The notes below the pieces were generated by a model that saw only the letters and a list, made by a program, of their open reading frames with translations, was not told the origin of the DNA and did not search any database. The position numbers and the translations under genes were made by a program. Positions 29,462-59,619 of a stretch of 64,000 nt of DNA are shown one piece after another; the stretch's first letter is position 1; the number at the start of each line of letters is the position of its first letter. This stretch comes from a virus (Duplodnaviria > Caudoviricetes), in the IMG/VR virus record IMGVR_UViG_3300028797_000161, positions 5,384 through 69,383 of that record; one strand, written 5' to 3'.

Positions 29462-29485
29462 CGATTTTTACATGTTCTTTTATGG
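29462..29485 (+). promoter_or_regulatory. Phage promoter-like motif, copy 1
   Basis: CGATT-TTTACA-TGTTCTTT-TATGG, then hairpin GGGTAAAACCC and RBS. Confidence 0.75.
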
Positions 29486-29511
29486 GTAAAACCCAGAAAG
29501 GAGTGTTTGAA

Positions 29512-29847
29512 ATGAAGAAAACACTGTATGTTGTACTGAGGGATATCGGTCTTGATCTTGGTGAAGGTTACTCATCTTCATCGTCAGACGAATTCGTTGG
29601 AGTTGTCAACGATTTTCAGACAGCCAGAAACATTATAGAATACTTTATCGATCAGCTTATAGGCGAAATTGATGAAGACAGATCTGTTTGTAAAAGCTGT
29701 CCGAAGGATCGTGGATGTCATGGATGTGAATACTATGAACACGGAACAGTTCAAGAAGACGATTGGGATGAAATATATATTGAAATGGATGATTGGTATA
29801 ACTCGGTCGTGACATATCATTTCAAACAAATTGAGGTTGAGGTCTAA
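29512..29847 (+). CDS. Acidic hypothetical protein with CxxC..CxxC
   Basis: RBS AGAAAGGAG; CKSCPKDRGCHGCEY. Confidence 0.7.
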   Translation: MKKTLYVVLRDIGLDLGEGYSSSSSDEFVGVVNDFQTARNIIEYFIDQLIGEIDEDRSVCKSCPKDRGCHGCEYYEHGTVQEDDWDEIYIEMDDWYNSVVTYHFKQIEVEV

Positions 29848-29866
29848 CAAGACCTCTCCTTTTTTT

Positions 29867-29890
29867 CGATTTTTACAAAGCCTTCTATGG
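29867..29890 (+). promoter_or_regulatory. Phage promoter-like motif, copy 2
   Basis: CGATT-TTTACA-AAGCCTTC-TATGG after terminator GAGGTC/GACCTC; hairpin GGAC/GTCC follows. Confidence 0.75.
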
Positions 29891-29926
29891 ACAAGAGTCC
29901 GTACTAAATTTATAGGAGGTTTTGTT

Positions 29927-30241
29927 ATGAAACAGCTTGTCAATTTTGTAGGGTACTATCTCGGAACTGGAGTTCTGGCATGGATAATCTTTGGAGTTGT
30001 GGTTTTCCTGTCAGTATTGATCGTAGGTCACAAATATGGAAAAGATATATGCGAACGTATAAATCATACGGCAAGGGGGGCTTGTGACGGAAACCTGAAT
30101 CTAATAGATTTAATTAGAATGACACTATTATGGCCAATCTTGATTCCAGCAACCGGATATGTAATCAAAATATGGATTGATCAAGCGATCGAAGACCAAA
30201 AACGAGACTCTCGGTGTCTGGAGTATTGGGGCGATAAATAA
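29927..30241 (+). CDS. Membrane protein (2 TM, WP motif)
   Basis: RBS GGAGG; hydrophobic helices; LLWPILIP. Confidence 0.7.
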   Translation: MKQLVNFVGYYLGTGVLAWIIFGVVVFLSVLIVGHKYGKDICERINHTARGACDGNLNLIDLIRMTLLWPILIPATGYVIKIWIDQAIEDQKRDSRCLEYWGDK

Positions 30242-30285
30242 GTCGCCCCTTTCTTTTTTACGTTTTTTACAATGGATATTATGGA
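30228..30285 (+). repeat. ~58-nt terminator+promoter direct repeat, copy A (copy B at 31164-31222)
   Basis: GGGG[C/T]GATAAATAAGTCGCCCCTTT..TTTTACG[A/T]TTTTTACAA...TATTATGGAA is present in both. Confidence 0.85.
30261..30284 (+). promoter_or_regulatory. Phage promoter-like motif, copy 3
   Basis: CGTTT-TTTACA-ATGGATAT-TATGG. Confidence 0.75.
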
Positions 30286-30300
30286 AAGGAGGTATTGAAA

Positions 30301-30597
30301 ATGGAAGGATTAAACAAATGTCCGTTTTACAACGAAACAACTAGAACACTTTATATGCCAAAAACGATTCAAACAAAATTTGACAACGAATTAAAACGTT
30401 CGGGATATGTTACATTGCATGAATTCTATGTAATGCTTGCAGAATCATTACCCGAAGATATGCGTGAAGAATTTCTTGAGAATTTGGATCGTCCTTGGTG
30501 TGAAAATGATAAAGTCGGTTTTTCACTAGTTTTTTCACAGAATGTAAATACGGGAATCATAGTCGTTGATTTCAATACCGATAAAGAAGCACTATAA
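30301..30597 (+). CDS. Hypothetical protein, stand-alone copy of the GYVxLxEFY paralog domain
   Basis: LKRSGYVTLHEFYVML resembles the domain in 32399, 42331, 43696 and 44310. Confidence 0.65.
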   Translation: MEGLNKCPFYNETTRTLYMPKTIQTKFDNELKRSGYVTLHEFYVMLAESLPEDMREEFLENLDRPWCENDKVGFSLVFSQNVNTGIIVVDFNTDKEAL

Positions 30598-30617
30598 CAG
30601 GTGCTTCTCTTTTTTTT
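30585..30617 (+). terminator. Rho-independent terminator
   Basis: GAAGCAC/GTGCTTC stem followed by a T-run. Confidence 0.75.
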
Positions 30618-30683
30618 CTATTCTATCTTAGATTTAATTTCTAATCTAAGAAAAACCCCGGGATGGACTTTTTGGTTGCTGAT

Positions 30684-30713
30684 TTTACAATCCCCTATTC
30701 AAAATGTTATATT
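30684..30713 (+). promoter_or_regulatory. Host sigmaA-type promoter for the moron gene
   Basis: TTTACA (30684-89), N18, TATATT with extended -10 TG at 30705-06. Confidence 0.5.
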
Positions 30714-30733
30714 TAAATAAAGGAGGAATTAAT

Positions 30734-31156
30734 ATGAAAAAAATTATTTGTTTCAGCATTCTTTTTATCTTTCTTCTGGTGAGTTGTATGAATGTATATG
30801 CATTAGATTTATCTAAATATACTGATGAAGATTTATCTTTGCTATACGAGCAGATAATAAATGAAATGAACGATAGATGTATTGAAAAAATAGCACATCT
30901 TGAAGCAGGAAAATACATTGGTGGTCGAGACATCCCAACCGGAGATTATTTGATATTTGTAGACAATATAAATGGAGACGATGATATTAAGATCAAATAT
31001 ACTTGTAAAAGCGATCTCTTCCAATCCGGATCCGGGATAATTAGTGCTGGTAAAACATTTAGGATGTATGTTACTGTATACGAATCAGATATTCTGCTTA
31101 CGGACGGAAAAATTGATCTGATTCTTAATCCTCAAGCATCTATTACGTTTGAGTAA
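30734..31156 (+). CDS. Secreted or membrane-anchored moron protein
   Basis: Signal peptide MKKIICFSILFIFLLVSCMNVYA, then DLSKYTDEDL and GKYIGGRDIPTGDY; AT-rich; own promoter and terminator. Confidence 0.75.
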   Translation: MKKIICFSILFIFLLVSCMNVYALDLSKYTDEDLSLLYEQIINEMNDRCIEKIAHLEAGKYIGGRDIPTGDYLIFVDNINGDDDIKIKYTCKSDLFQSGSGIISAGKTFRMYVTVYESDILLTDGKIDLILNPQASITFE

Positions 31157-31197
31157 TTCCATGGGGGTGATAAATAAGTCGCCCCTTTATTATTTTA

Positions 31198-31221
31198 CGA
31201 TTTTTACAAGCTTTATTATGG
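31198..31221 (+). promoter_or_regulatory. Phage promoter-like motif, copy 4
   Basis: CGATT-TTTACA-AGCTTTAT-TATGG; hairpin GGA/TCC follows. Confidence 0.75.
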
Positions 31222-31258
31222 AATAATATCCCATTAAAATAAGAAAGGAGACAAACGT

Positions 31259-31333
31259 ATGTTTGGAATCGCAGGCGTGCTGCTGATCGCAGCGGGTGTT
31301 TTCCTGGTAGCAAAGTGGGTAAAAGACGAATAA
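31259..31333 (+). CDS. 24-aa single-TM peptide MFGIAGVLLIAAGVFLVAKWVKDE
   Basis: RBS AGAAAGGAG; sole ORF between promoter copy 4 and terminator GAGTCACTTG/CAAGTGGCTC (31343-31372). Confidence 0.65.
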   Translation: MFGIAGVLLIAAGVFLVAKWVKDE

Positions 31334-31470
31334 AATGAATCGAGTCACTTGATGAAAAATGCAAGTGGCTCTTTTCTTTTTCGAGAAAGGAGACTGACTT
31401 TATGACTAGCGAACCGATTCGAAAAAATCAGATCCTAATATGGAAAATATTTCTATAAGGAGTGATTCGG

Positions 31471-31623
31471 ATGGAAGCTTTACTGGAGTACGCTCAGATT
31501 GGGATTCTGATTTTAGTGTCGCTTATTTGTGTGATTGGTTTGGTGATCAATAGCGTACGTTTACAGAATCAAGCGCTCGCGGAGGCGGAAAAACGTAAGA
31601 ACATGCCTTGGACATGGGACTGA
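31471..31623 (+). CDS. 50-aa single-TM peptide
   Basis: RBS AAGGAG; MEALLEYAQIGILILVSLICVIGLVINSVR... Confidence 0.6.
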   Translation: MEALLEYAQIGILILVSLICVIGLVINSVRLQNQALAEAEKRKNMPWTWD

Positions 31624-31666
31624 TGAAAGATTCAGTCCCTTATTATTTTTGAAAGGAGCAATTAAT

Positions 31667-32095
31667 ATGTCTACTGACACGAGGCCTGAATTATCTGAAA
31701 AAAATAAATGGTATATAAGTAAACACCGATATTATGAGCTTCGTCATTTCTGTCTGCAATATCCAGATTGGAAGAGATTGATATCTGATTTTGAGCAAAC
31801 GTGTATCACATCAGGTATCACTACTGAGCATATTAATGCTGGTCGATATTCTAATAAAGTCGCTGAATTGGCAGTATATCTAGCACCATTGAATGAGAAA
31901 ATAGAAATGGTTAGAAAGGCTGCTTACGAGGCATGCAATCATCAATTTTGGTATCAAATTCTTATAGAAGCGGTCACAGAGAATAAGAGCTATGATGTTC
32001 TTGAAGTTCAAACCCAAATTATGCCAGTGAGCAGAAATGAGTGGTATATTCTCTATAGGAAGTTCTTCTGGTGTTTAGATAAACTTCGGGATTAA
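31667..32095 (+). CDS. Putative transcriptional regulator (ArpU/RinA-like, C-terminal HTH)
   Basis: C-terminal SYDVLEVQTQIMPVSRNEWYILYRKFFW resembles the sigma4-like HTH of ArpU/RinA activators. Confidence 0.5.
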   Translation: MSTDTRPELSEKNKWYISKHRYYELRHFCLQYPDWKRLISDFEQTCITSGITTEHINAGRYSNKVAELAVYLAPLNEKIEMVRKAAYEACNHQFWYQILIEAVTENKSYDVLEVQTQIMPVSRNEWYILYRKFFWCLDKLRD

Positions 32096-32096
32096 G

Positions 32097-32120
32097 TTGT
32101 CACGTAGGTGACAATTTTTT
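32097..32120 (+). terminator. Palindromic hairpin TTGTCAC-GTAG-GTGACAA plus T-run
   Basis: Perfect 7-4-7 inverted repeat right after the stop codon, followed by TTTTTT. Confidence 0.6.
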
Positions 32121-32147
32121 ATTTTATTATGTTAGAAAGGAACAATT

Positions 32148-32402
32148 ATGATACGAAGAATCATTCATGCTTTAGGGTGGTTCAGTAAACGAAGATATTT
32201 ATATCCAGATACGTTTATTGACAGATTAAATATGTTCTTAGAAGACGCACATCGGCATAGATGTAAAACATGTCAATGGTGCTGTCGAAATGGATTTTGT
32301 TTTAAAAATCCGTGTAGTTATCCCGAAGACAGAAACATTAACACTGATTGGTGCGGTAGTTATGGATATTACAAACGTATAAAACGGAGGAGATACAAAT
32401 GA
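32148..32402 (+). CDS. Cys-rich hypothetical protein
   Basis: CKTCQWCCRNGFC...WCG; RBS AGAAAGGA. Confidence 0.6.
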   Translation: MIRRIIHALGWFSKRRYLYPDTFIDRLNMFLEDAHRHRCKTCQWCCRNGFCFKNPCSYPEDRNINTDWCGSYGYYKRIKRRRYK

Positions 32403-33307
32403 ATAAACGTGAATTGTTCGGATGGCTTCTTGCAACTTTTAGCTCAGTGGGTGTTATAACAACGTCGCTTTTGGCGGCTGATGAGATACCGAAAGCTAAA
32501 ATAGCGCTTAAAGTTAAGAAAGAGGCTAAAGGTGAAGAAGACCTTACACTTTTGGAGACGATCAAAGTAGTCACTCCGATTTGTGCTCCTTCTTTGATAT
32601 CCGGCGGTCTTACTATTGGTTCTATTTTTACAAATCAGGCTCTGAATAGCAAGCAACAAGCCGCATTGATCGCTTCTGGCGTTTTTGCTTCCAGCGCTGC
32701 TCAAGAATATGATAAATATCGGCGTGCTATTCAAGCAGAGCAAGGCGAAGCAGTTGATCAGCGGGCTCTTGAGAGAGCGAAGATGACCGAAAAACAGTTG
32801 CGGAAAGAAATAGAGCGCCTTAAAGCAGAAAATGGTCCGTATCTTTACTGCTTTGCTACACTGCCGGGTATGATGTTTGAGGCTCGACCTGGCGATATTC
32901 AAGAAGCCTTTCTTCATTTCAATCGTAATCTCATTCTTCGCGGTTATAATGATCTGCTCGAATTGTATAAGTTTATCGGTGTTCCCGAGAGATGCTATGA
33001 CGCTGAAGAGTCTGCAAATTATGGTTGGAACGAATATATTAATTCGGTAGAGTTTGAATGTCCGTATTGTGATTTTGACATTGTACCGATATTAATGGAT
33101 AATGGCAACTATGTTCATTTAATCAAAACTCCGGTTCCGCCATACAATTTGGATTTAGATTATGAAAATGAATCCACTTCCGATCATCAGTATCCCATGT
33201 ACGATGAACAAATGACCATAGATAATACTAAACGATTATTCAACAGTAACAATTATGAAGTCATCAAAATCGATCATCCATATTTGTATCGTACGGGCAT
33301 TATTTGA
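32399..33307 (+). CDS. Paralog family protein (N-terminal hydrophobic helices, coiled coil, GYxxLxELY..GW domain)
   Basis: Shares its architecture with 42331-43137 and 44310-45215. Confidence 0.75.
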   Translation: MNKRELFGWLLATFSSVGVITTSLLAADEIPKAKIALKVKKEAKGEEDLTLLETIKVVTPICAPSLISGGLTIGSIFTNQALNSKQQAALIASGVFASSAAQEYDKYRRAIQAEQGEAVDQRALERAKMTEKQLRKEIERLKAENGPYLYCFATLPGMMFEARPGDIQEAFLHFNRNLILRGYNDLLELYKFIGVPERCYDAEESANYGWNEYINSVEFECPYCDFDIVPILMDNGNYVHLIKTPVPPYNLDLDYENESTSDHQYPMYDEQMTIDNTKRLFNSNNYEVIKIDHPYLYRTGII

Positions 33308-33321
33308 AAGGAGGAAAAATC

Positions 33322-33693
33322 ATGAATCATTCAATTGAGTATTTACGTTTATCGCCTGCAAAAATGAATGAGATAGCTGAAACTGTAAATAAAGATCCTT
33401 TGATTTTGAAAATGCGAGCTGATGCATTTGTAAACTTGCATCAATATATTACACATGATCAGAAATGTCAAATAAGAGATAATCAGATGATTCACGAAAT
33501 CGATATAGATCTTGAGAATATGCAGCTCAGATGGGCATATTTAAAAGGTCATCACGATGGTCAGCTTGATGCTCTTCAAAGAATGCATAATGCTGCTGTT
33601 ATGGCCGACAATGAAATAACGACCGTTTACAATAAGATAGCCGAACCCCTTGTTGACAAAGCGCTTAAAGAGGAGGAAGCAAATCATGAGTGA
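33322..33693 (+). CDS. Hypothetical protein
   Basis: RBS GAAAGGAGG. Confidence 0.7.
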   Translation: MNHSIEYLRLSPAKMNEIAETVNKDPLILKMRADAFVNLHQYITHDQKCQIRDNQMIHEIDIDLENMQLRWAYLKGHHDGQLDALQRMHNAAVMADNEITTVYNKIAEPLVDKALKEEEANHE

Positions 33694-33937
33694 CATCTGG
33701 CTTGGTGCTATTACTGGCATTTTTATTGCAAGCGCGGTTTGGGTGTTTGTTTATCTCGCTTTGATTGGCAAATGGTATGTGGGTGATCTTAGGGAAGATC
33801 GATCAAGCGGTGACGAACGTCCATTATATTTCATGGAAATTGCTCAAGGTGGATATCGACATATGCAGTCAAATAAATTTGTTCTCCTGCGTATAAAACG
33901 AGAAAATTATATTAAAGAAGGAGAAAACCATCAATGA
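33686..33937 (+). CDS. Single-TM membrane protein
   Basis: RBS AGGAGG; IWLGAITGIFIASAVWVFVYLALIG. Confidence 0.68.
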   Translation: MSDIWLGAITGIFIASAVWVFVYLALIGKWYVGDLREDRSSGDERPLYFMEIAQGGYRHMQSNKFVLLRIKRENYIKEGENHQ

Positions 33938-34056
33938 TTGATTTAATTGAGGTATATCTTTCTTATGAGTGGGATCTGGCGTCAGGTCCCCTCTTTTTAA
34001 TTGCCATCATATCATTTATTCTTGCTTTAGTTGCTTTGGTTAAACTGGATAAATAA
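33934..34056 (+). CDS. 40-aa TM peptide
   Basis: RBS AAGGAG; ATGA overlap with the upstream stop; PLFLIAIISFILALVALVKL. Confidence 0.55.
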   Translation: MIDLIEVYLSYEWDLASGPLFLIAIISFILALVALVKLDK

Positions 34057-34059
34057 ACT

Positions 34060-34083
34060 CCATTTTTACAAACCATATTATGG
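34060..34083 (+). promoter_or_regulatory. Phage promoter-like motif, copy 5
   Basis: CCATT-TTTACA-AACCATAT-TATGG; hairpin GGGT/ACCC and RBS AGAAAGGAG follow. Confidence 0.75.
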
Positions 34084-34113
34084 GTAATAGACCCAGAAAG
34101 GAGAATAAAAGTT

Positions 34114-34632
34114 ATGGATGACAACAGAATTGTAGAACTGCTGGATTCTGAGATCGAGAAAACTCTGGAGGAGGTTTCTCAGGCAGAAACAGGAAGTGAA
34201 GCGGCAAAGGCGGCGTTGACCAAACTGGGAAGACTCCATGATCAGCGTATCAAAGAACTTGATGCGATTCTGAAGAATAAACAGCGTATTGACACTGATT
34301 GCGCTAAGCGTGATGAGTTGCATGTTCGTGAGAAAGAACTGGAGGTTAGGCAGCTTCAGCTTAAGAGTGAGCTGGATGCTAAACTGATGCAGATCGAGAA
34401 CGAACGTGTTGCCACGCAGGCGGAATTGGAACAGAAGACTGCTGAACTTCAGGAAGCAAAGAGAGGTCGGAGATGGCGCACGGTCCTGGATATTCTCGGA
34501 ATCGGTGTCCCGCTGCTGGCGACTGCTCACTGGATGTCTAAGGGACTGAAATTTGAGGAAGAAGGAAAGATCTATTCCAGCAGAACAGCACAATGGGTTG
34601 GAACCCTAACTCGGTTATTCAAGAAAGGGTAA
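34114..34632 (+). CDS. Coiled-coil protein with C-terminal hydrophobic segment
   Basis: Long E/K/L heptads; VLDILGIGVPLLATAHW. Confidence 0.75.
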   Translation: MDDNRIVELLDSEIEKTLEEVSQAETGSEAAKAALTKLGRLHDQRIKELDAILKNKQRIDTDCAKRDELHVREKELEVRQLQLKSELDAKLMQIENERVATQAELEQKTAELQEAKRGRRWRTVLDILGIGVPLLATAHWMSKGLKFEEEGKIYSSRTAQWVGTLTRLFKKG

Positions 34633-34686
34633 TCCCGGATCGGAGGCTCTGAAAGGACAGGGTCTCCTATCTTTTTTTGCACCAAA

Positions 34687-34710
34687 CGATTTTTACATAC
34701 TCCTTTATGG
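34687..34710 (+). promoter_or_regulatory. Phage promoter-like motif, copy 6
   Basis: CGATT-TTTACA-TACTCCTT-TATGG after terminator GGAGGCTCTG/CAGGGTCTCC; hairpin GGAC/GTCC follows. Confidence 0.75.
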
Positions 34711-34751
34711 ACAGGTGGTCCTATTGAAATGACATAAAGGAGGAAATCAAA

Positions 34752-34910: not shown

Positions 34911-34948
34911 ACGCGGGGTTCCCTTTTTTTCGAAGAAAGGAGCGTAGT

Positions 34949-37219: not shown

Positions 37220-37402
37220 ATGGCAAATTGGATTATTGAGAAAGATCCGGTTGGTGGTGATTGCTGTATATGCTCCGAATGCGGATGGTTTGATTGGATG
37301 AATCATAGATATCCTCATTGTCCATATTGTGGAACTAAAATGGAATGCAGTAAGGAACCGCCACTTCTTTCTGGGTATTTTCTGAAAGATCAGCACGAAT
37401 AA
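37220..37402 (+). CDS. Zn-ribbon small protein
   Basis: CSECG..HCPYCGTKM; RBS AAGGAGG. Confidence 0.6.
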   Translation: MANWIIEKDPVGGDCCICSECGWFDWMNHRYPHCPYCGTKMECSKEPPLLSGYFLKDQHE

Positions 37403-37419
37403 AACAACCGCTTTTATGG
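37396..37419 (+). promoter_or_regulatory. Phage promoter-like motif, copy 7 (variant)
   Basis: CGAAT-AAAACA-ACCGCTTT-TATGG with the same spacing; RBS AGAAAGGAG follows. Confidence 0.55.
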
Positions 37420-41565: not shown

Positions 41566-41589
41566 CGATTTTTTCAAGTTATGTTATGG
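41566..41589 (+). promoter_or_regulatory. Phage promoter-like motif, copy 8
   Basis: CGATT-TTTTCA-AGTTATGT-TATGG; 28 bp (41564-41591) are identical to 43171-43198; hairpin GGGA/TCCC follows. Confidence 0.72.
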
Positions 41590-41625
41590 GAGATGATCCC
41601 GAATAACATTTATGGAGGTTTTAAC

Positions 41626-41884: not shown

Positions 41885-42334
41885 TTGAAGGCGTCATTTG
41901 ATCTCGACAGATATCTTCGTCAGCAAGGTATCTCTACACGACCTATGGATTTTCCCTGGCAGAAAATGGATGATAACGAACGATGGCTGACTAAAGACGA
42001 GGCAATTAGATTGATAAATGAGTGGCGGGAAGAGGCGATCCCGACTAAAAATCTGTATTATGCTCGGATCAAATGTTCGTTGGTTCAATTTTCCAGTGGG
42101 GTCCGAAACGCGTATCTCAATACGATGCTGGATTATCTTATTGAGAGAATCAAAAAGAGCGACCATGATCCGATTACGGTTGTTGCGACATATAACTATG
42201 AGATGGATGATGTTCTCGCAATGAGCGATGCAGATCATCGAGTCACACACCGCTTTGCAGGATTCATGGAACGTTCAAGCTACGATCTTCTTTTATATCT
42301 GAAGGACAAAGAAAAGGAGTTGAATGAGAAATGA
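41885..42334 (+). CDS. Hypothetical protein (TTG start)
   Basis: RBS AGAAAGGAG 6 nt before the TTG. Confidence 0.65.
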   Translation: MKASFDLDRYLRQQGISTRPMDFPWQKMDDNERWLTKDEAIRLINEWREEAIPTKNLYYARIKCSLVQFSSGVRNAYLNTMLDYLIERIKKSDHDPITVVATYNYEMDDVLAMSDADHRVTHRFAGFMERSSYDLLLYLKDKEKELNEK

Positions 42335-43137
42335 GTGTAAAACAATGGTTTGGCAAGCTGTGGGAAGGAACAAAGCGTAATGCGCCAACCATTCTGACTG
42401 CGAGTTCGATAGGCTTATTCCTCGCCAGTACCATTGAGGCGGTGAAAGCAACACCGAAAGCAATGGAAGCAATCGAGGAAAAGAAGCAAGAAGAAGGCCA
42501 CATTGAGCTCACTGCCATGCAGACAGTTCAGGTAACCTGGAAGTTCTACGTTAAGTCAGTTCTCGCATTTATCGGTGGTACGGTTTGTGGATTCTCGGCA
42601 TTGCGTGAGAATAATAAACGCATTGCGAGCATCCTGGCAACGGCTGAGGCTGGGAAGAACATCCTTCAAGAATTCCAGGACTATCGGAAATTCGTCGCTG
42701 AGAAGATCGGTGCGAAGAAGGAAGCGGAGATTTATAACAATGCGGCGCAGGAAGTGGTTAATCGTAATCCTCCTCCCGCAAATATGAAACCAGAGTTCGT
42801 CGAAGGTCAGGCTCCTAAGCCTATCTGTTTCCATGCCGCATACGGACGGTATTTCTATGCCGATTATGAAACAGTTCGGGAAGCTATCAACCGGTTAAAC
42901 GAAAAGATCAACACGAGTCTGGAAGGATATGTAAGTCTGAATGACTTCTATTATGAAGTGGGTGTTGCTCCTACTGAATTTGGCAATATGGTCGGATGGA
43001 GTATCGAAACCGGACTTATTAAGATCCCTGCCAAAGAAGATCTTCGCTATGCTGGTACCCCTGACGGATGGCCCTGCTGGATTCTCGAATTTGAAAATCC
43101 GCCGCAATATGAATATCAGTTTTTTCGTAAGCACTAA
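42331..43137 (+). CDS. Paralog family protein (hydrophobic N-terminus, GYVSLNDFY..GW domain)
   Basis: NAPTILTASSIG..KATPKA..GRYFYAD..EGYVSLNDFYYEVGV..MVGW. Confidence 0.8.
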   Translation: MSVKQWFGKLWEGTKRNAPTILTASSIGLFLASTIEAVKATPKAMEAIEEKKQEEGHIELTAMQTVQVTWKFYVKSVLAFIGGTVCGFSALRENNKRIASILATAEAGKNILQEFQDYRKFVAEKIGAKKEAEIYNNAAQEVVNRNPPPANMKPEFVEGQAPKPICFHAAYGRYFYADYETVREAINRLNEKINTSLEGYVSLNDFYYEVGVAPTEFGNMVGWSIETGLIKIPAKEDLRYAGTPDGWPCWILEFENPPQYEYQFFRKH

Positions 43138-43172
43138 ATTCCTGTGCTTCGCTGGATGATATCGGCGGAGCA

Positions 43173-43196
43173 CGATTTTTTCAAGTTATGTTATGG
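43173..43196 (+). promoter_or_regulatory. Phage promoter-like motif, copy 9
   Basis: Identical to copy 8; hairpin GGGAC/GTCCC follows. Confidence 0.72.
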
Positions 43197-43236
43197 GACA
43201 TAGTCCCTCATAAAAAATAATTAGGAGGTCAAAACA

Positions 43237-43695: not shown

Positions 43696-44295
43696 ATGAA
43701 CGAACAGTATCCGTCCAATAGTGATCGCGGACAGGATCTCGCGAACCAAGCGTCATATCAGCAGAAACGGGTAACGGAACCGGTTGTAAACGGTAGCGTT
43801 TCCCGTAAAGATAAAAGTCTGTGGGATATGGTAGCCGAGTTCTTTGGTCTGGGAGAATGCAAAACATTCCGCGACTATGTCGGTGCGCTGAGCGATATGA
43901 CGAATCGAGTTTATGGCGCAGTTGATACTCTGCTCGGGAATCGGAAGTATACGAATACGACGGTTCCGGGTGCCAGAGTTCAGTACAGTGCCATGTATAA
44001 CCCGCAGAATCCTCCTGCACAGCAACCGGCAGCTCCTCAGGCGACTGGGGCTTATGGGCAGTATTATATTACCTACGATCTTCGTCAGGATGCGGAGGTT
44101 GTTCTTGGTAAGATGTTTGAACTGCTTCAGATGTATCAGAACGTTAGCGTTGGAGATATGTTTGACCTTGCCGGCATATCAAGTCCCAATGGATATACAG
44201 ATATGAAGTTCGGATGGAAGTCTCTTGACGGAGTCCGAGTCGTACCGTATGGAAGCAAATGGGTCATCAGTCTTCCTGCCGCTATTCAAATCTAA
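43696..44295 (+). CDS. Paralog-domain protein
   Basis: C-terminal MYQNVSVGDMFDLAG..FGW. Confidence 0.72.
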   Translation: MNEQYPSNSDRGQDLANQASYQQKRVTEPVVNGSVSRKDKSLWDMVAEFFGLGECKTFRDYVGALSDMTNRVYGAVDTLLGNRKYTNTTVPGARVQYSAMYNPQNPPAQQPAAPQATGAYGQYYITYDLRQDAEVVLGKMFELLQMYQNVSVGDMFDLAGISSPNGYTDMKFGWKSLDGVRVVPYGSKWVISLPAAIQI

Positions 44296-44309
44296 TCTGG
44301 AGGAAAGAT

Positions 44310-45215
44310 ATGAATATTAAAAACTTCATCTCCAATTTGATTGGCAAGGCCAAAGATAATGCCTCCGATCTGAAAATGGGTATTGGTACCGTCAGTGTTA
44401 TTGGCGGTACCATTCTTTTGTGTAAAGAAACGATCAATGCTTGTGATATCGTTCGTGAGTATCGTGAAGCAAAGCAGAAACTGATCGATGAAGGCGCTGA
44501 GAAAAGTGAAATCCGAAAACTGACAGTGAAAACGGTCGGTAAAGTCGCCGTTACCGTTGCTCCTGGCGCTGCTGTCGAAGTAGGCGGACTTGGTCTTATG
44601 TGGAATGGATATTCTAATACCAAGACCGCACTGATCGGCGTTAGTATGGCATACGGTGAACTTCAGGAATTCAACAACAAATATCGTCAGAAAGTTCGTG
44701 ACGAATATGGCGAAGAGGTTGACGAGAAGTTCGCCTATGAATTCCAGGAAAAAGAGGTTGTTATAACCGATGAAAACGGAGTTCAGAAGACCGAAACGGT
44801 TAAAATCTATCCGAATGATTATCGGAAAATGCCGAGCGTTTATGCCCGCTATTTCTGCTATGGTGAAGCGGAAGGAGCGGAGAGAAGCTTCGACTATAAT
44901 GATCATTTCCTTCATGCCCAACAAGAAATGGCAAACCGGTATCTGAAAGCACATAAGAAAATGATGCTGAATGAGCTGTATGATATGCTCGGCATCAAGC
45001 ATAGCAAAGCTGGGTATAATGTCGGCTGGATCTATGATGAAAAGAATCCCGAGGGTGATAACAAAGTTAAGCTTCGTGTTCGTGTTGTCTATCGGGAGAT
45101 TCTGGATCCGATTACTGGCGAACCTACCGGTTACGAACGTGTGCACATGATCGATCCGAATGTCGACGGCATGGTCGTTGATAAACTGGTTCAGCGTGGA
45201 CTGATCGAGGAATGA
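44310..45215 (+). CDS. Paralog family protein
   Basis: Hydrophobic N-terminus; YARYF..MMLNELYDMLG..VGW. Confidence 0.78.
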   Translation: MNIKNFISNLIGKAKDNASDLKMGIGTVSVIGGTILLCKETINACDIVREYREAKQKLIDEGAEKSEIRKLTVKTVGKVAVTVAPGAAVEVGGLGLMWNGYSNTKTALIGVSMAYGELQEFNNKYRQKVRDEYGEEVDEKFAYEFQEKEVVITDENGVQKTETVKIYPNDYRKMPSVYARYFCYGEAEGAERSFDYNDHFLHAQQEMANRYLKAHKKMMLNELYDMLGIKHSKAGYNVGWIYDEKNPEGDNKVKLRVRVVYREILDPITGEPTGYERVHMIDPNVDGMVVDKLVQRGLIEE

Positions 45216-52566: not shown

Positions 52567-52590
52567 CCATTTTTACAAACCTTCTTATGG
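52567..52590 (+). promoter_or_regulatory. Phage promoter-like motif, copy 10
   Basis: CCATT-TTTACA-AACCTTCT-TATGG. Confidence 0.75.
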
Positions 52591-52884: not shown

Positions 52885-52927
52885 AAAGAGGATTAGCCGT
52901 GAAAACGGCCTCCTCTTTTCGTTTTTT

Positions 52928-52951
52928 TTTTTTTTACATACTCCTTTATGG
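52928..52951 (+). promoter_or_regulatory. Phage promoter-like motif, copy 11
   Basis: TTTTT-TTTACA-TACTCCTT-TATGG (same N8 as copy 6), after a GAAA-tetraloop terminator at 52888-52915. Confidence 0.72.
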
Positions 52952-53243: not shown

Positions 53244-53260
53244 ATTCTGTATGGACTATT

Positions 53261-53284
53261 CGTTTTTTACAAATCCTTGTATGG
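53261..53284 (+). promoter_or_regulatory. Phage promoter-like motif, copy 12
   Basis: CGTTT-TTTACA-AATCCTTG-TATGG; hairpin GGAT/ATCC and RBS AGAAAGGAG follow. Confidence 0.75.
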
Positions 53285-53313
53285 ATGAATAATCCAGAAA
53301 GGAGTGAACTTCA

Positions 53314-53589: not shown

Positions 53590-53657
53590 GAACTTAAGTC
53601 CCTATGGATAAATTCTGTAGGGGCTTTTGTTTTTCTTTCGAAAAGGAGACGAACTTT

Positions 53658-54225: not shown

Positions 54226-55442
54226 TGCTTAAGTTACGGAATAATCAGTTAGAAGCACTTCGTCTACTGAAGAATGGATCAGTGCTCTATGCAGGCATGG
54301 GAACGGGAAAGAGCCTTACAGCCGTCGCTTATTATTATCTGCTGAATGGCGGGCAAAAAGATTTCCTGTATGGCGGCGATTACGTACGAATGCCGGGTAA
54401 ACCATTGGACCTGTATATAATCACGACCGCACGTAAACGAGATACATTTGAATGGGAAAAAGAGTTAGCTCCTTTCCTTCTCTCCACAGAAAACAATGGC
54501 TATGATAACAAAGTAGTCGTGGATAGTTGGAATAATATCGCTAAATATACGGACGTTAAGAATTCGTTCTTTATATTTGACGAGCAACGGGTTGTTGGAA
54601 AAGGTGTCTGGGTGAAAAGCTTTCTAAAGATTGTGAAAAGCAACCAATGGATACTTCTTACTGCAACTCCCGGCGACAACTGGGGCGATTATATTCCTTT
54701 GTTCATTGCAAATGGCTTCTATAGAAATAGAAGTGAATTTAGTCGCGAGCATGAAGTTTATGCTCGTTTTCTCAATTATCCTAAAGTAGAGAAGTACGTC
54801 AACACGAAAAAACTGGAGTATTACCGTAACCAAATTCTGGTAGAGATGTCACATTCATTGATAACAGTTCAGCATCATGAGACTATTCCTGTTAAATTCG
54901 ATGGCCAAAAATATAAGGACACTTACAAGTATCGATTCAACTGGTGGAAAGAACGGCCGATCGAAAACGCTGCTGAACTTTGTTATTGTCTGCGCAAAAT
55001 TGTTAATTCCGATCCTTCCCGTGCGGCTGCCTTACTGGAGTTGGCAGAGAGCAATCCCAAGATGATTGTGTTCTATAACTTCGATTACGAACGCGACATC
55101 TTATTAAGTTTACAATACCCACCGGGAACCGCTGTTGCTGAATGGAACGGGCACAAGCATGAACCCATACCCGTCCATAGCGACCGATGGATATATTTAG
55201 TTCAATATACTGCTGGGGCGGAGGGTTGGAACTGTATCGACACTAACGTTATGGTGTTTTATTCACAAAACTATGGATATAAGACCATGAAACAGGCATC
55301 CGGTCGCATTGATCGTATGACATCTCCGTATGTGAATCTCTACTATTATCATCTCAAGAGTTCAAGCGCTATTGATATTGCTATTTCCCGTGCGCTCGAA
55401 AACAAGAAAAAATTTAATGAAAGGAAGTTCGTAAAATGGTAG
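54225..55442 (+). CDS. Superfamily 2 (SNF2-like) helicase
   Basis: GMGTGKS; FIFDEQR; LLTATPG; GAEGWN; QASGRIDR. Confidence 0.9.
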   Translation: MLKLRNNQLEALRLLKNGSVLYAGMGTGKSLTAVAYYYLLNGGQKDFLYGGDYVRMPGKPLDLYIITTARKRDTFEWEKELAPFLLSTENNGYDNKVVVDSWNNIAKYTDVKNSFFIFDEQRVVGKGVWVKSFLKIVKSNQWILLTATPGDNWGDYIPLFIANGFYRNRSEFSREHEVYARFLNYPKVEKYVNTKKLEYYRNQILVEMSHSLITVQHHETIPVKFDGQKYKDTYKYRFNWWKERPIENAAELCYCLRKIVNSDPSRAAALLELAESNPKMIVFYNFDYERDILLSLQYPPGTAVAEWNGHKHEPIPVHSDRWIYLVQYTAGAEGWNCIDTNVMVFYSQNYGYKTMKQASGRIDRMTSPYVNLYYYHLKSSSAIDIAISRALENKKKFNERKFVKW

Positions 55443-55807
55443 GCAAACAAGACGATTGGAAAGATGGAGCGGATAAGGGTCTCATTCAATTCCACAGTAA
55501 AAAGAGCATATGTGATCGGGTCGAGAAGATCTTCGCTAAAAAGGCAAACTTTGATGAGAGCGGGTTTGCCCTTCTCGATCTGGTCACTGCCGATGTCGCC
55601 CTGGATCTTGGTCACCTGAGCGATGCAGATCGCAAGAATCTCAAGAAACTCGGTTATGAATTCAAGTGGTTTGACCGGGAGATGACGGACGGCATCATTT
55701 ATAGATGGGTCATTGAGGACAACCGGCGTAAGAGCTATGTCCTGAAGTTGTACTTCAATCAGAAACTTATAAAGGAAGGGGTTTTCCCGAATGCAGAAGA
55801 TCAGTAA
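55436..55807 (+). CDS. Hypothetical protein
   Basis: Coupled ORF, 123 aa. Confidence 0.62.
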   Translation: MVGKQDDWKDGADKGLIQFHSKKSICDRVEKIFAKKANFDESGFALLDLVTADVALDLGHLSDADRKNLKKLGYEFKWFDREMTDGIIYRWVIEDNRRKSYVLKLYFNQKLIKEGVFPNAEDQ

Positions 55808-56291
55808 TAAAGGCAAACCCTCTTGGCATTGTAAGAATTGTTGCTGGGTTCTGCTCGTCGATCAGGATGAATTGATAACCCTTATCGATGCCATGAAGAC
55901 CTACGGATTTGACGGCAAAATTGTATCTGCTATCTGGAAGGATCATGACAAAATCGGACCGCGAATGCATGTGACTGTTCAGATCCCCGGTACTAAGCCC
56001 GGAACCTCTCTGCGAGGGTTCAGTTATGGTGATTACGAACGGTGGCAGAAAGTTAAGGCTATGATCTACCGGAAGCGTAAGAACCTCAAAGATCCTTTTG
56101 TATTCCCCACTTGGTGTGCTCCATTGCTGAACTCGGTTATGAAAGCATCTTACGACCATCAAGGCAAGCCTTTAGCAAAGGTTATTTCTGCTCAGCCACT
56201 CAATGGCGGTGTGGTGTTCCGAGCAGAACTTTTAGTATCTGAAAAAGAGTTCCTTCAACAATGCGGGAATCTTGTTGTCGAAAAAGTGTGA
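55791..56291 (+). CDS. Hypothetical protein
   Basis: RBS AAGGAAGGGG; 166 aa. Confidence 0.62.
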   Translation: MQKISNKGKPSWHCKNCCWVLLVDQDELITLIDAMKTYGFDGKIVSAIWKDHDKIGPRMHVTVQIPGTKPGTSLRGFSYGDYERWQKVKAMIYRKRKNLKDPFVFPTWCAPLLNSVMKASYDHQGKPLAKVISAQPLNGGVVFRAELLVSEKEFLQQCGNLVVEKV

Positions 56292-56311
56292 TAAATAAGG
56301 AGGATAAAACA

Positions 56312-56806
56312 ATGAAAGAAAAGACTAAGACAATCATTATCGCTCTTACCGGCACTGCTCTCGGAGTAACTGGACTTACATGTCTTGGATATTCTATCCA
56401 TCAGGTTCGCTCCATGCGCAGAGTTCTGCTCGGCAGCGCTCAAAAGATCAACGAGCTCAGCCATGTGGATATCGACCAGGCTGTGGTTGATAACATGGTT
56501 AAGAAAGCCGTTAAGGAACAGGCAACGACGATTGCTTCCAAAGCGGCCACTAAGGCTTGTGATGCCGTTACTGCCGACATGGTTAACCGAGTCAAGCAGC
56601 TGGTGAGCAACAAGCAAGACGAGATCGAGACTCAGCTGGCTAATGAGATTCTGGACATGATTACCAAAGCGGATAAAAACGAGATCGTTGAGGATGTTAC
56701 TGAGAAAGCCAGCGAGATGCTAGTTGAAAAACTCGGTGACGACCTTGATTGCGAGGTCGGCCGCATGGGTAAGATTTATAAAGGCATCGTTGCCATGGTG
56801 AGCTGA
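56312..56806 (+). CDS. N-terminal TM plus long helical protein
   Basis: RBS AAGGAGG; IIIALTGTALGVTGLTCLGY. Confidence 0.72.
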   Translation: MKEKTKTIIIALTGTALGVTGLTCLGYSIHQVRSMRRVLLGSAQKINELSHVDIDQAVVDNMVKKAVKEQATTIASKAATKACDAVTADMVNRVKQLVSNKQDEIETQLANEILDMITKADKNEIVEDVTEKASEMLVEKLGDDLDCEVGRMGKIYKGIVAMVS

Positions 56807-56818
56807 AGAAAGGAGGAA

Positions 56819-57100
56819 ATGATTATGCCGTATAACGTTTGTGCATCCGAACCGATTGCGGTTGGTAAAAACAATGATCGTGGTAATGTTTCGAATACAA
56901 TTCATTCAACATTAGGATCTCTGGCAGATACTTCTGCTGTTCTGGATATGATTATTAAGAATCTAACCGGATATGAAGATGATTGTAGTGGATGTATTCC
57001 TGATCCGGGATCCCTGTTTGAAGCTGCTGAACAGGCTAAAATCACTTCAGAGATAAATCTGAATAAAGTTAATCAGATTATGGAAATTCTGTTTAAGTAA
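56819..57100 (+). CDS. Hypothetical protein
   Basis: RBS AGAAAGGAGG. Confidence 0.65.
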   Translation: MIMPYNVCASEPIAVGKNNDRGNVSNTIHSTLGSLADTSAVLDMIIKNLTGYEDDCSGCIPDPGSLFEAAEQAKITSEINLNKVNQIMEILFK

Positions 57101-57123
57101 TTTTCAGAAATAAGGAGATACAC

Positions 57124-57669
57124 ATGAACTGTACAAATTGTGGGGCTCCCGTTCCATCCGATGGAGCTAATGTTCCTAAAATTGAGGTAAAAGAACACGA
57201 CGATTCTATTGCTGCTATGCTTGAAGGTCTGGAGGCGGCCAAGCAGTTCGCTGCCGGAATAAAGGAGAATGACAAAGTCAATAACCCGTCTCATTACACG
57301 TATGGCAAGTGGGAGGTTATTGATATTCTCCGTGGAATGCTGACTCCCGAACAATTCGAAGGTTTCCTGCTCGGCAATGTTCTGAAGTATGTATTCCGAT
57401 ATTCACATAAGAACGGATCTGAGGATCTGCGTAAGGCTGGCGTGTATCTGGGATGGCTGACTGAGTTGGTTGCTACGTGGGAGAAGGAAGAAGCCGAATT
57501 CAATGCCGCCGAAGATGATACTAAGAAATACACTTTCGTTAATCGCGACAATGGAATGGTCTTTGGATTTCAGATGCAAGCCGTTACTGAAAAAGATGAA
57601 AATGGCTCAGTTATGACTGGTGATCCGGTTCATGGATATACTATTCACAAGGAGGATTCAAAATCATGA
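57124..57669 (+). CDS. DUF3310 (SaV-like) domain protein
   Basis: DKVNNPSHY..EVIDIL..FLLGNVLKYVFRY..KNG.EDLRKA..YL. Confidence 0.85.
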   Translation: MNCTNCGAPVPSDGANVPKIEVKEHDDSIAAMLEGLEAAKQFAAGIKENDKVNNPSHYTYGKWEVIDILRGMLTPEQFEGFLLGNVLKYVFRYSHKNGSEDLRKAGVYLGWLTELVATWEKEEAEFNAAEDDTKKYTFVNRDNGMVFGFQMQAVTEKDENGSVMTGDPVHGYTIHKEDSKS

Positions 57670-57977
57670 AAAAAGTACATTGGAGCCCGCTGGATGGAAT
57701 GACTGCTTATGAGGCTGTCACCCATGAACTTTTCAAAGACATGGAAAGTACTCCAGGTGCTGCATATCTGGTTCAGATGAAGATTAAACATATTGATGAA
57801 CCTGAATCAGCATATCGTGATATCACTGAACTCCTCACTGACGAACGTGCTGATTGGTATGAAGAAGATGGCTTGGTTTGGAACAACGACTGGCACGAAG
57901 GCGAGGACGATATCATTATTACTGCCTTTGCCAAGGTTGAGGATATTGATATTACCCAAAGTTTTCCGTTTGAATGA
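57666..57977 (+). CDS. Acidic hypothetical protein
   Basis: RBS AAGGAGG; ATGA overlap. Confidence 0.65.
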   Translation: MKKVHWSPLDGMTAYEAVTHELFKDMESTPGAAYLVQMKIKHIDEPESAYRDITELLTDERADWYEEDGLVWNNDWHEGEDDIIITAFAKVEDIDITQSFPFE

Positions 57978-58189
57978 GTACATGCGGTTTGGGCATGAGG
58001 TAAGGACCGGAGCCCTGTAATTGGTGTCAGCGCTTAAACCATCCGCTGTGTAGAGGTGCAAGATATATCAGATGATATCTGGTGCGTTACTTTTGAATGA
58101 GTACGATTCAAAAGAGAAAGGATATCTACTTCGAAGGTTTGATATATTGAGCTTAAATCGTTTTATACGAGCCTCTAACTTTAAATAAT

Positions 58190-58260
58190 AGGCGTATTGT
58201 GTAATGGTAGCACAACGGACTTTGACTCCGTTAGAGTAGGTTCAAACCCTACTACGCCTG
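58190..58260 (+). tRNA. tRNA-Gln (anticodon TTG), no encoded CCA
   Basis: Acceptor AGGCGTA/TACGCCT; D-arm GTG-TAATGGTAG-CAC; anticodon arm ACGGA-CTTTGAC-TCCGT; T-arm GTAGG-TTCAAAC-CCTAC. Confidence 0.92.
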
Positions 58261-58290
58261 TTATTTTTTTTTTCGAAAGGAGGAGAAATA

Positions 58291-58383
58291 ATGACTTGGC
58301 CAAGTGCTTTTATTATTATTGCTATTGTCATCTGTGCTGCTGTCCTGATATGGAAATGGATGGATGAGCGTTCCTGGGGGTAA
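58291..58383 (+). CDS. 30-aa TM peptide
   Basis: RBS GAAAGGAGG; MTWPSAFIIIAIVICAAVLIWKW. Confidence 0.6.
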   Translation: MTWPSAFIIIAIVICAAVLIWKWMDERSWG

Positions 58384-58389
58384 TTGATA

Positions 58390-58620
58390 ATGATTGCTGT
58401 TTTTAATTTCTTTTTCGGTTCTATCTGGATTTTGATTTTGTTACTGGTGGCATCCGGTTATATAGTAACGATCTATTTCAAACAGAAAAAAGGGTTCGTT
58501 ATCTGGAACTTACAAGTTCAAGCAGAGGCTCTTAAAGCAGCATATCAACCGAAAAATAATCAAGATTTAGAAGAAGTTGAGCCTCCGAAAAACTGGGATT
58601 CGTCCATGACCGACCGTTAA
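58390..58620 (+). CDS. Small membrane protein
   Basis: Hydrophobic N-terminal half. Confidence 0.55.
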   Translation: MIAVFNFFFGSIWILILLLVASGYIVTIYFKQKKGFVIWNLQVQAEALKAAYQPKNNQDLEEVEPPKNWDSSMTDR

Positions 58621-58629
58621 AAAGCGGTC

Positions 58630-58925
58630 AAATTCGTGGCTATTTTTGTGGCTAAATCTGGCTAAATGGCTAAATCTTTTTAAAAATTTGTTGGCGATCG
58701 GGTTTGATCGGGAACGGACGATTGATAAAAAACGGCCAAAATTGGCTAAATCTTGCAAAATTGGCTATTTTTATTTAGGATTTAGCCAGCCCGCAAACCC
58801 TTATAAATCAACGGTCCCAGCCGTTTTGCGGCTAAATGGCTACGTTTTTTCTCTATTTATTATAGAAAAAAATTTTATATATAATAATAGAAAAATGCAA
58901 AAATATCCAGCCATTTAGCCACTGC
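58630..58925. other. Candidate replication origin: GGCTA(AAT) iterons in both orientations around an AT-rich core
   Basis: At least 10 GGCTA/TAGCC copies. GGCTAAATGGCT at 58660 and 58830 is inverted as AGCCATTTAGCC at 58909-58920, flanking a very AT-rich segment. Confidence 0.6.
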
Positions 58926-58944
58926 AAGAAGAAAGGAGATTTTT

Positions 58945-59169
58945 ATGCAAACTTTGTTTGATGTTGGTGATAAAGTTGAGATCACTGTCCGAGGTAAAAT
59001 CAGCAGCATTTCGCTCAGTGCAAAAGGCGATTGCTATGTTGTGAACATAGACGCTGATATGAAAGAAGCAAAGGGAAATGCTCCTTATGAGTATAACCTT
59101 TACTTTGATAGTGCCATGCTCAAGAAGTGCGGCGCAAAACTTGTTACTCCACAGATTTCCCAAAAATAA
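58945..59169 (+). CDS. Small beta-barrel (SH3/KOW-like) hypothetical protein
   Basis: RBS AGAAAGGAG; FDVGDKVEI. Confidence 0.65.
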   Translation: MQTLFDVGDKVEITVRGKISSISLSAKGDCYVVNIDADMKEAKGNAPYEYNLYFDSAMLKKCGAKLVTPQISQK

Positions 59170-59219
59170 TCTTTACATCTCCTATCCCCTGTCATACAAT
59201 CAAATCCGGGTGATGATTT

Positions 59220-59529
59220 ATGACTGAAGAATTTTGGGAAGATCTGTATCGAGTAGATGCTACAGACTCATGGATAAACGGAGCTTATACCGAACAAGGT
59301 GATCAAGTATATTGTGACGGTTGCCACGAGGAAATGAGCTTTGATCCTGAGTCACGAGAATGGAGGTGCCGCCATTGCGGAAGTTCTAAAAATAGAATAG
59401 AATGGGTTTGATTATCTTGACGCTGCCCCGCCCGGCCCTGCGTGTTTGACGCGTTGTCAAGAAAATTACCCATTGTGTAAAAATTGGTGTTTGCTGTATG
59501 AAATCCCGGACAGCGACCCAATTTTATAA
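59220..59529 (+). pseudogene. Zn-finger gene split by a +1 frameshift at about 59404-59411
   Basis: Frame 0 (CDGC..CRHCG) stops at GTT TGA. The startless +1 frame continues FDYLDAAPPGPACLTRCQENYPLCKNWCLLY to 59529. Confidence 0.5.
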
Positions 59530-59595
59530 AGCGTTGTAAAGGAGCCCCTGTGATTTATACAAGGGCTCTTCTTTTTTGCCTTTTTAAAGGGGGCA

Positions 59596-59619
59596 CGAAA
59601 TTTACAATCTCTATTATGA
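59596..59619 (+). promoter_or_regulatory. Phage promoter-like motif, copy 13 (upstream of the nuclease-RNAP operon)
   Basis: CGAAA-TTTACA-ATCTCTAT-TATGA after terminator GAGCCC/GGGCTC (59547-59578). Confidence 0.7.

Follow-up and report, generated by a model that had tools for sequence, protein, structure and literature searches.

Phage single-chain two-barrel RNA polymerases are thought to be akin to the ancestor of the cellular RNA polymerases, and how they find their promoters is little understood. Here we describe a set of candidate promoters for one such enzyme in a 64,000-nucleotide stretch of tailed-phage DNA (the window), which comprises bases 5384 to 69383 of the 69,383-bp IMG/VR virus record IMGVR_UViG_3300028797_000161, a record rated 100% complete and linear. 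The element in question is a motif, first described as C[GC]WWW-TTTACA-N8-TATGG, of which 13 copies lie in the non-structural part of the genome. We argue that these copies probably serve as promoters for an RNA polymerase that the phage itself encodes, a single-chain two-barrel enzyme, and not for the host sigmaA holoenzyme. Phage-polymerase-specific promoters are already known in kind, and the present case would be a cross-phylum variant for an uncharacterised two-barrel enzyme; no description of a promoter for the phage-1706/YonO-like polymerase family, or of the motif sequence itself, was found in searches of the literature.

Several described systems bear comparison with this locus. YonO, encoded by the Bacillus prophage SPbeta, belongs to the same broad group of single-chain two-barrel polymerases resembling RNA-dependent RNA polymerases; its target is a single late operon, and the sequence of its promoter is undefined (PMC5467207), whereas the candidate promoters described here head early, replication and polymerase operons and not structural genes. 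For the two-barrel polymerases of Thermus phage P23-45, promoters were assigned from the co-occurrence of a motif with the polymerase gene and were later confirmed by cappable-seq and chromatin immunoprecipitation sequencing (PMC10770324). The P23-45 system (gp64/gp96) resembles the present one in having a single-chain two-barrel enzyme, and gp64 and gp62 count among the closest structural neighbours of the protein considered here, but sequence similarity is undetectable, and the promoter motifs of P23-45, which are described in other terms as classes rich in AT and rich in GC, are experimentally confirmed whereas ours are candidates. The non-virion RNA polymerase of phiKZ, a non-canonical two-barrel phage enzyme that uses no host sigma, has a strict need for T(-3)ATG(+1) (PMC7598289). 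The proposed initiation at the G of a TATG lying over the start is shared with phiKZ, but the phiKZ enzyme is multi-subunit and its promoters show no upstream conservation; here the candidate enzyme is a single chain with helix-turn-helix (HTH) domains, and about 25 bp upstream are conserved (a CGCR box, an A/T tract and ACA). The promoters of phage AR9 have the form AACA-N6-TA. T7, T3 and SP6 promoters are similar in layout, being contiguous over about 23 to 28 bp up to +1, with a TATA-like melting box beside the initiating G and a purine-rich start, present in many copies and often paired with terminators; their polymerase is unrelated to the candidate described below, and their consensus is different.

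Two intergenic repeats from actinobacteriophages may represent the same element. In the Gordonia phage Vardy (cluster DJ), a 50-bp intergenic motif with five copies in the gene 36-55 region was read as a sigma70 -10 promoter (PMC9671010), and its authors drew no link to the polymerase gene or to relatives in another phylum. Our scan of Vardy found nine copies, whose consensus is CTCGCA-N5-TTACAC-N-CCTATAATGAGACCCC and which begin within that region, and the published motif appears to belong to the same family. In cluster AU phages, a 32-bp intergenic repeat has been reported as recombination boundary sequences; it may also be of this motif family.

The long open reading frames (ORFs) of the genome lie on the + strand without exception. 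Portal, protease-capsid fusion, tail and lysis genes occupy the left arm, whereas the right arm holds many small ORFs together with genes for a 1428-amino-acid (aa) primase-polymerase, ThyX, a helicase, a Cas4-type exonuclease and, second from the end, a 1011-aa protein that is the candidate polymerase. The order primase-polymerase, ThyX, helicase, exonuclease and polymerase at the right genome end is common to the window and Vardy.

The exact core TTTACA-N8-TATGG occurs nine times, always on the + strand, against 0.01 matches expected from shuffled sequences. A position weight matrix (PWM) made from the 13 sites of the original prediction scores them at 23 to 41 bits, and the next-best position in the window reaches 14. 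All 13 sites fall between 29.4 and 59.6 kb, in the non-structural region, and no copy was found on the - strand, in window positions 1 to 29,400 or in the 5.4 kb by which the genome extends leftward beyond the window. The predicted number of copies, their strand and their absence from the structural region were thus borne out. The predicted consensus holds with some variation: its spacing is kept at all 13 sites, but the exact core is present at nine and the C[GC]WWW prefix at 12, the exception being TTTTT at 52928. The four non-exact sites, 41566 and 43173 (TTTTCA), 59596 (TATGA) and 37396 (AAAACA), retain the spacing and most of the conserved bases, and 37396 conforms to the family-wide core CG-W6-ACA-N9-ATG described below. 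The structural and lysis arm, about 34 kb (window 1-29400 plus genome 1-5383), contains no copy, and its intergenic gaps are without any repeated signal; one possibility is that late transcription of this arm is achieved by read-through from the right end over joined genome ends.

The position of the sites relative to genes and terminators is regular. From the first G of TATGG to the next start codon there are 12 to 43 nucleotides (nt) at 11 sites and 106 nt at 59596, while no ORF of at least 30 codons was called after 31198. Terminator-like sites of the intrinsic type are enriched between 27 and 46 kb (30 against 13 expected), and 8 of the 13 motifs lie no more than about 30 nt downstream of a hairpin and T-run, as had been claimed for their placement. 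The sites, a possible degenerate copy and the candidate polymerase gene are as follows, with PWM scores in bits.

29462 to 29485, + strand: promoter candidate 1; CGATTTTTACA-N8-TATGG exact; PWM 40.6; proposed +1 at G 29484; after a hairpin and T-run; 4-bp stem GGGT/ACCC at 29484-29494.
29867 to 29890, + strand: promoter candidate 2; exact; PWM 38.7; upstream terminator-like hairpin at 29839-29856; stem GGAC/GTCC at 29889-29900.
30261 to 30284, + strand: promoter candidate 3; exact; PWM 35.3; upstream terminator at 30228-30249; no 5' stem; ribosome-binding site (RBS) AAGGAGG from about +4.
31198 to 31221, + strand: promoter candidate 4; exact; PWM 39.8; upstream terminator at 31163-31186; 3-bp stem GGA/TCC from +1.
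34060 to 34083, + strand: promoter candidate 5; exact core with CC in place of CG; PWM 38.0; stem GGGT/ACCC at 34082-34094.
34687 to 34710, + strand: promoter candidate 6; exact; PWM 33.4; upstream terminator at 34642-34667; stem GGAC/GTCC at 34709-34721.
37396 to 37419, + strand: promoter candidate 7; lowest PWM score of the window's candidates, 23.2; CGAATAAAACA...TTTTATGG, with CG, ACA, spacing and TTATGG kept; matches the A-rich form of relatives.
41566 to 41589, + strand: promoter candidate 8; TTTTCA, one mismatch; PWM 36.2; stem GGGA/TCCC at 41588-41600.
43173 to 43196, + strand: promoter candidate 9, at the head of the replication operon (primase-polymerase, ThyX); TTTTCA, one mismatch; PWM 36.1; terminator at 43143-43174 overlapping its 5' end; stem GGGAC/GTCCC at 43195-43207.
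52567 to 52590, + strand: promoter candidate 10; exact core with CC in place of CG; PWM 37.9; stem at +1 with one G-U pair.
52928 to 52951, + strand: promoter candidate 11; exact core with a T-run instead of CGATT; PWM 30.9; upstream terminator-like hairpin at 52896-52909; RBS GGAGG from +2.
53261 to 53284, + strand: promoter candidate 12, at the head of the helicase operon; exact; PWM 36.6; stem GGAT/ATCC at 53283-53295.
59596 to 59619, + strand: promoter candidate 13, at the head of the exonuclease and RNA polymerase operon; TATGA variant; PWM 31.5; strong hairpin (about 59620-59648) and T-run immediately downstream.
32622 to 32645, + strand: possible degenerate 14th copy, inside an ORF and lacking TATG, probably not functional; PWM 14.0, or 25.3 with a longer model.
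60600 to 63635, + strand: RNA polymerase candidate and proposed reader of the motif; 1011 aa, single-chain two-barrel, with N- and C-terminal HTH domains.

The motif extends well beyond this phage. We compared 13 polymerase-bearing genomes, whose polymerases are 31 to 69% identical to that of the window; the hosts of relatives with the motif include Faecalibacterium, Lactococcus, Streptomyces, Gordonia, Rhodococcus and Arthrobacter. The de novo motif finder needed a complexity filter, its unfiltered output being dominated by T-runs and ribosome-binding sites. A homologous motif ranks among the leading intergenic repeats in 10 of the 13 genomes; PWM refinement together with a de novo search placed it among the top repeats in nine relatives, and it was found in all 13 genomes, weakly in three. 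Copies on the + strand numbered 22 in the genome that we label G004, 12 in G003, 14 in G005, 14 in FP_oengus, 10 in Lactococcus P078, 12 in Streptomyces Rima, 9 in Gordonia Vardy, 14 in Rhodococcus ReqiPoco6 and 7 in Arthrobacter Mudcat. A relaxed pattern, WWACA-N8-TATGR, gave 13, 9 and 5 forward matches in G004, G003 and FP_oengus, respectively, and no reverse match in any of the three, with 0 or 1 for reversed-pattern controls. Aligned on ACA, the copies share one plan, namely (T)CGCR, 5 to 8 A/T-rich bases, ACA, five bases with C-rich end positions, a hexamer and a purine. Lactococcus and actinobacterial phages have TATAAT as this hexamer and gut phages have TnTTAT or TTTAAT; in all 13 genomes, each site has a purine as the base that follows it. 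The upstream box differs between clades, being TTTAAG in P078 as against CGCR elsewhere.

Position and orientation are conserved as well. Save for a few weak copies, the motif in relatives lies on the gene strand; its first copy is just 3' of the tail and lysis genes, its last is 5' of the polymerase operon, and the structural arm is without copies. A copy about 1 kb 5' of the polymerase gene is present in L011, L014, L028, L031, MT835495, FP_oengus, Mudcat and ReqiPoco6, and L012 has a duplicated copy about 3.8 kb 5' of that gene. In nearly all genomes the copy near the polymerase gene has a purine-rich start (GAGAGAG and similar). As to the check by co-occurrence that the original prediction had put forward, relatives with the same polymerase gene do carry a homologous motif between genes, on the same strand and in the corresponding part of the genome. 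An exact scan of IMG/VR (CGATTTTTACA-N8-TATGG) returned 20 contigs with one match each, which we judge to be at about chance level and uninformative on co-occurrence; the exact variant would therefore have no close relatives in IMG/VR.

The 1011-aa ORF matches phrog_4291 ("RNA-dependent RNA polymerase") over residues 56-1009 with an E value of 7e-285. Pfam detects only HTH domains in it, at residues 124-162 and, weakly, at 976-1006. The SGADFDGD loop, of the NADFDGD type that forms the catalytic DxDGD metal loop, is invariant in an alignment of 16 homologues. In an AlphaFold2 model of the protein (predicted local distance difference test [pLDDT] score of 77), the best Foldseek matches are QDE-1, the gp64/gp62 RNA polymerase of Thermus phages P23-45/P74-26 and plant RDR2, with E values of 1e-6 to 1e-4. 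Searches with tblastn recovered 250 phage records with a homologue at about 94% coverage, from hosts that include Arthrobacter, Gordonia, Streptomyces, Lactococcus, Curtobacterium, Microbacterium, Rhodococcus and Faecalibacterium, as well as from gut contigs. The protein of phage 1706 has been assigned among YonO-like families (PMC2919709), and the family has been put forward both as a putative polymerase and as the signature gene of a supercluster of Actinobacteria and Firmicutes phages (bioRxiv 10.1101/842583); no biochemistry demonstrating RNA synthesis by the phage-1706/YonO-like family turned up in the literature searched. Taken from sequence and structure model, the 1011-aa protein is a credible candidate for a two-barrel RNA polymerase of the phage-1706/YonO-like branch. 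The phage RNA polymerase claimed by the original prediction is thus credible, its type being the two-barrel YonO/1706 type and not that of T7. A T7-type assignment of the 1011-aa protein was rejected, there being no Pfam RNA_pol (PF00940) match even at an E value of 10 and the fold being two-barrel and not right-hand. A Pfam search of the 56 other non-structural ORFs likewise found no T7-type RNA polymerase.

Among those 56 ORFs, Pfam also revealed no sigma factor or other DNA-binding regulator. In the left arm, a weak HTH match was found only in the protein directly 5' of the large terminase gene, which is probably the small terminase. The polymerase is conserved and has HTH domains of its own, and no competing factor was detected; therefore, we infer that the polymerase is the simplest reader of the motif. 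The phiKZ and P23-45 enzymes, discussed above, serve as precedents.

The following mechanism would fit these observations. The signal would span about 28 bp and open with an upstream CG, which is what remains of the CGCR box of the family; an A/T tract and ACA would come next and then, after five variable bases, a T-rich hexamer for melting, placed next to the initiating purine, the hexamer being TnTTAT here and TATAAT in the Lactococcus and actinobacterial relatives. The fused HTH domains of the polymerase are likely readers of the upstream boxes. Transcription would most likely start at the G of TAT|G, where the original prediction had placed +1; this start is consistent with the register of the hairpins described below, with the invariant purine and with RBSs that begin 1 to 5 nt after it. 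Terminators precede 8 of the 13 copies, and jointly with them the motifs would split the non-structural half into units for small early genes, for replication and for nucleotide metabolism, with the polymerase operon as a unit of its own.

Many of the predicted transcripts would begin with a short stem. At 7 of the 13 sites, a perfect stem of at least 4 bp (4 to 5 bp) starts at the first G of TATGG, compared with 2.1% of all GG positions (binomial P of 3e-9), and the number drops off register, to three at offset -1 and one at offset +1. The stems are GGGT/ACCC (twice), GGAC/GTCC (twice), GGGA/TCCC, GGGAC/GTCCC and GGAT/ATCC; since different stem sequences occur, pairing has been kept through changes on both sides. 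At least nine compensatory hairpins had been claimed; nine are found under a relaxed rule that allows a 3-bp stem or one G-U pair and brings in 31198 and 52567, but seven under the strict one. Most relatives lack a counterpart of the stems although they keep the box, and FP_oengus shares the stems in part. In seven to nine units, the stem-loop would probably shield the 5' end of the transcript from 5'-acting RNases, but this protective role, though plausible, would be specific to the window phage and partly to FP_oengus and is not a family feature. Stabilising stem-loops at the extreme 5' end are familiar from the ermC and aprE leaders of Gram-positive mRNAs. The stems here would occupy the same place on the predicted transcript, but they are of 4 to 5 bp, occur in about half of the units, have a putative role and are seen beyond the window phage only in FP_oengus, in part. 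Hairpin promoters of the type used by the N4 virion polymerase were considered and rejected: the stems lie downstream of the conserved box, run from the proposed +1, vary in sequence and are missing in most relatives.

Several points weigh against the assignment of the motif to the phage polymerase. In G001, G002 and MT835495, only a few clear copies of the motif were found. No polymerase-lacking relatives exist for contrast: the phage collection has none with the primase-polymerase but without the RNA polymerase (253 against 250 records, the extras being short fragments). The polymerase co-occurs with the whole core gene set of the supercluster, and the motif is therefore tied to that gene set and not to the polymerase alone; co-occurrence cannot single out the polymerase from another conserved, unrecognised factor. 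The polymerase gene itself lies behind one of its own candidate promoters, an arrangement that needs either a virion-delivered enzyme or basal host transcription. Finally, the Lactococcus and actinobacterial relatives have a hexamer that matches TATAAT perfectly, and the host polymerase may be in use in those phages.

The last of these points leads to the alternative that survives best, although we consider it rather unlikely: that the motifs are promoters of the host RNA polymerase, with sigmaA assisted by a phage activator at the CGCR and ACA boxes or replaced by an unrecognised phage sigma-like factor (compare T4 gp55 and AR9 gp226). TATAAT is present at every site in the Lactococcus, Gordonia, Rhodococcus and Arthrobacter phages, the Streptomyces phage has TATAAT or TATAGT, the Vardy motif has been published as a sigma70 -10 box, and intrinsic terminators of the host type precede motifs; moreover, many of the phage ORFs here have no recognisable function. 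However, as noted above, a Pfam search did not detect a sigma-like domain among the non-structural ORFs, and the flanking boxes are kept across phages of two bacterial phyla, which differ in their host sigma preferences.

The sequence of the sites also fits the host enzyme poorly. A sigma70/sigmaA promoter has a -35 hexamer 16 to 18 nt from the -10 hexamer and starts transcription 6 to 8 nt past the latter, and the A at position 2 of the -10 hexamer is needed by sigma region 2. At 16 to 18 nt from the hexamer, no TTGACA-like box is found; the gap between TTTACA and TATGG is 8 nt, and that between TTTACA and the aligned hexamer is 5 nt. When TTTACA was instead tried as a -35 box with a -10 box downstream, the scanner gave a match at only 1 of the 13 sites (53266), and sigma70-type scanner matches overall are not enriched relative to shuffles (43 against 45 expected, and 52 against 40). 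The position-2 A is lacking at most sites in four gut-phage genomes, being present at 4 of 14 sites here, 0 of 14 in FP_oengus, 1 of 11 in G003 and 1 of 14 in G005, with the position-6 T kept; it is present in the Lactococcus and actinobacterial relatives. Across the genomes, 21 of 91 units have an RBS that opens between +1 and +8, counted from the base that follows the hexamer; cases in the window are at +2 and +4. An RBS so near the hexamer would therefore be cut off by a sigmaA start 6 to 8 nt past it, and the RBSs at +1 to +5 in many units are incompatible with such a start. The 8-bp spacer had been put forward as a misfit to sigmaA, and this argument holds, reinforced by the missing position-2 A and the RBS positions; the fit of host sigmaA in the window phage thus appears poor.

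A second alternative, which we regard as improbable, is that the motifs are DNA sites and not promoters, serving either a phage regulator (such as the 1011-aa protein, with its HTH domains, in the role of a transcription factor) or as "boundary" homology for the shuffling of cassettes. Near-identical terminator-plus-motif units do flank small, exchangeable gene cassettes (30228-30285 compared with 31164-31222, and 41564 compared with 43171), and a preprint on the cluster AU phages proposes a recombination role for the intergenic repeats discussed above. Against such a role, the copies have a single orientation and a fixed slot between terminator and RBS, the purine at the would-be start is invariant with the stem register locked to it, and base-level conservation across phyla exceeds what recombination homology needs. 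Recombination as a side effect remains compatible with promoters, and cassettes could be gained or lost by it as a by-product of the repeated promoter units. The weakest alternative, a processing or stabilising RNA element in read-through transcripts whose hairpins mark RNase cleavage products and not primary ends, draws on the short stems directly after TATG and on the one-strand gene layout that permits read-through, but it is very improbable, since most copies lie directly behind terminators and little read-through RNA is expected to contain them, the conserved part lies 5' of the stems and lacks conserved pairing, and most relatives keep the box without the stems.

The phage polymerase thus stays the preferred reader, and a few further observations concern its operon. 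Directly after candidate 13 (59618-59660), a hairpin GAGAGAGAGG...CCTTCTCTTC and a T-run form a terminator- or attenuator-like element about 40 nt into the predicted transcript, and similar units of promoter, hairpin and T-run occur in G001, G002, G004, G005 and MT835495. This element may be an attenuator that holds down self-expression of the polymerase, or it may yield a short RNA. Short direct and inverted repeats lie just 5' of the polymerase-operon promoter in Mudcat (NC_031224.2, 55160-55410, GTGGCCAAAAAC) and in ReqiPoco6 (NC_023694.1, about 73,090-73,270, TATAGGGTATTAAG); these clusters may be iterons or regulator sites. In the polymerase itself, residues 1-71 (window 60600-60810) include a first 70 residues for which the model predicts disorder (pLDDT below 50), but S56, G57, R58, G62, G64, P67 and Q69 are invariant in the family, and this segment may be a packaging or partner-binding peptide. 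GenBank record EU081845.1 names the phage 1706 homologue (orf75) a "structural protein"; this record label is a hint of an enzyme that enters the cell with the virion contents, having been packaged, in the manner of N4 and crAss-like phages.

Elsewhere in the non-structural region, three paralogous genes encode DUF6353 (phrog_2152), a domain of unassigned function, at 32399-33307, 42331-43137 and 44259-45215, each in its own promoter unit. An Rfam scan of the window gave a single match, a tRNA-Gln (anticodon TTG) at 58189-58261, within a 1.7-kb stretch of small ORFs 5' of the polymerase operon.

A consensus of about 28 bp, linked by comparison to one family of single-chain two-barrel polymerases, makes promoter recognition by such enzymes directly testable. 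The family is present in more than 250 sequenced phages, many of which are easily grown, among them the Lactococcus 1706 group, Faecalibacterium FP_oengus and hundreds of SEA-PHAGES actinophages. The published sigma70 box of Vardy would be reinterpreted, and possibly also the recombination-boundary repeats of cluster AU. A bolder proposal, which we hold only tentatively, is that the 1011-aa enzyme is a self-sufficient, sigma-free and promoter-specific polymerase whose fused HTH domains recognise the CGCR and ACA boxes in double-stranded DNA, that it is carried in the virion and injected, and that all non-structural genes of the supercluster are expressed without the host RNA polymerase. The pairing of enzyme and promoter suggests a compact orthogonal expression system. 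If a virion-carried, sigma-free enzyme is indeed encoded, then enzyme and promoter, found from phages of gut Clostridia to soil actinophages, would constitute a portable orthogonal transcription system for Gram-positive bacteria.

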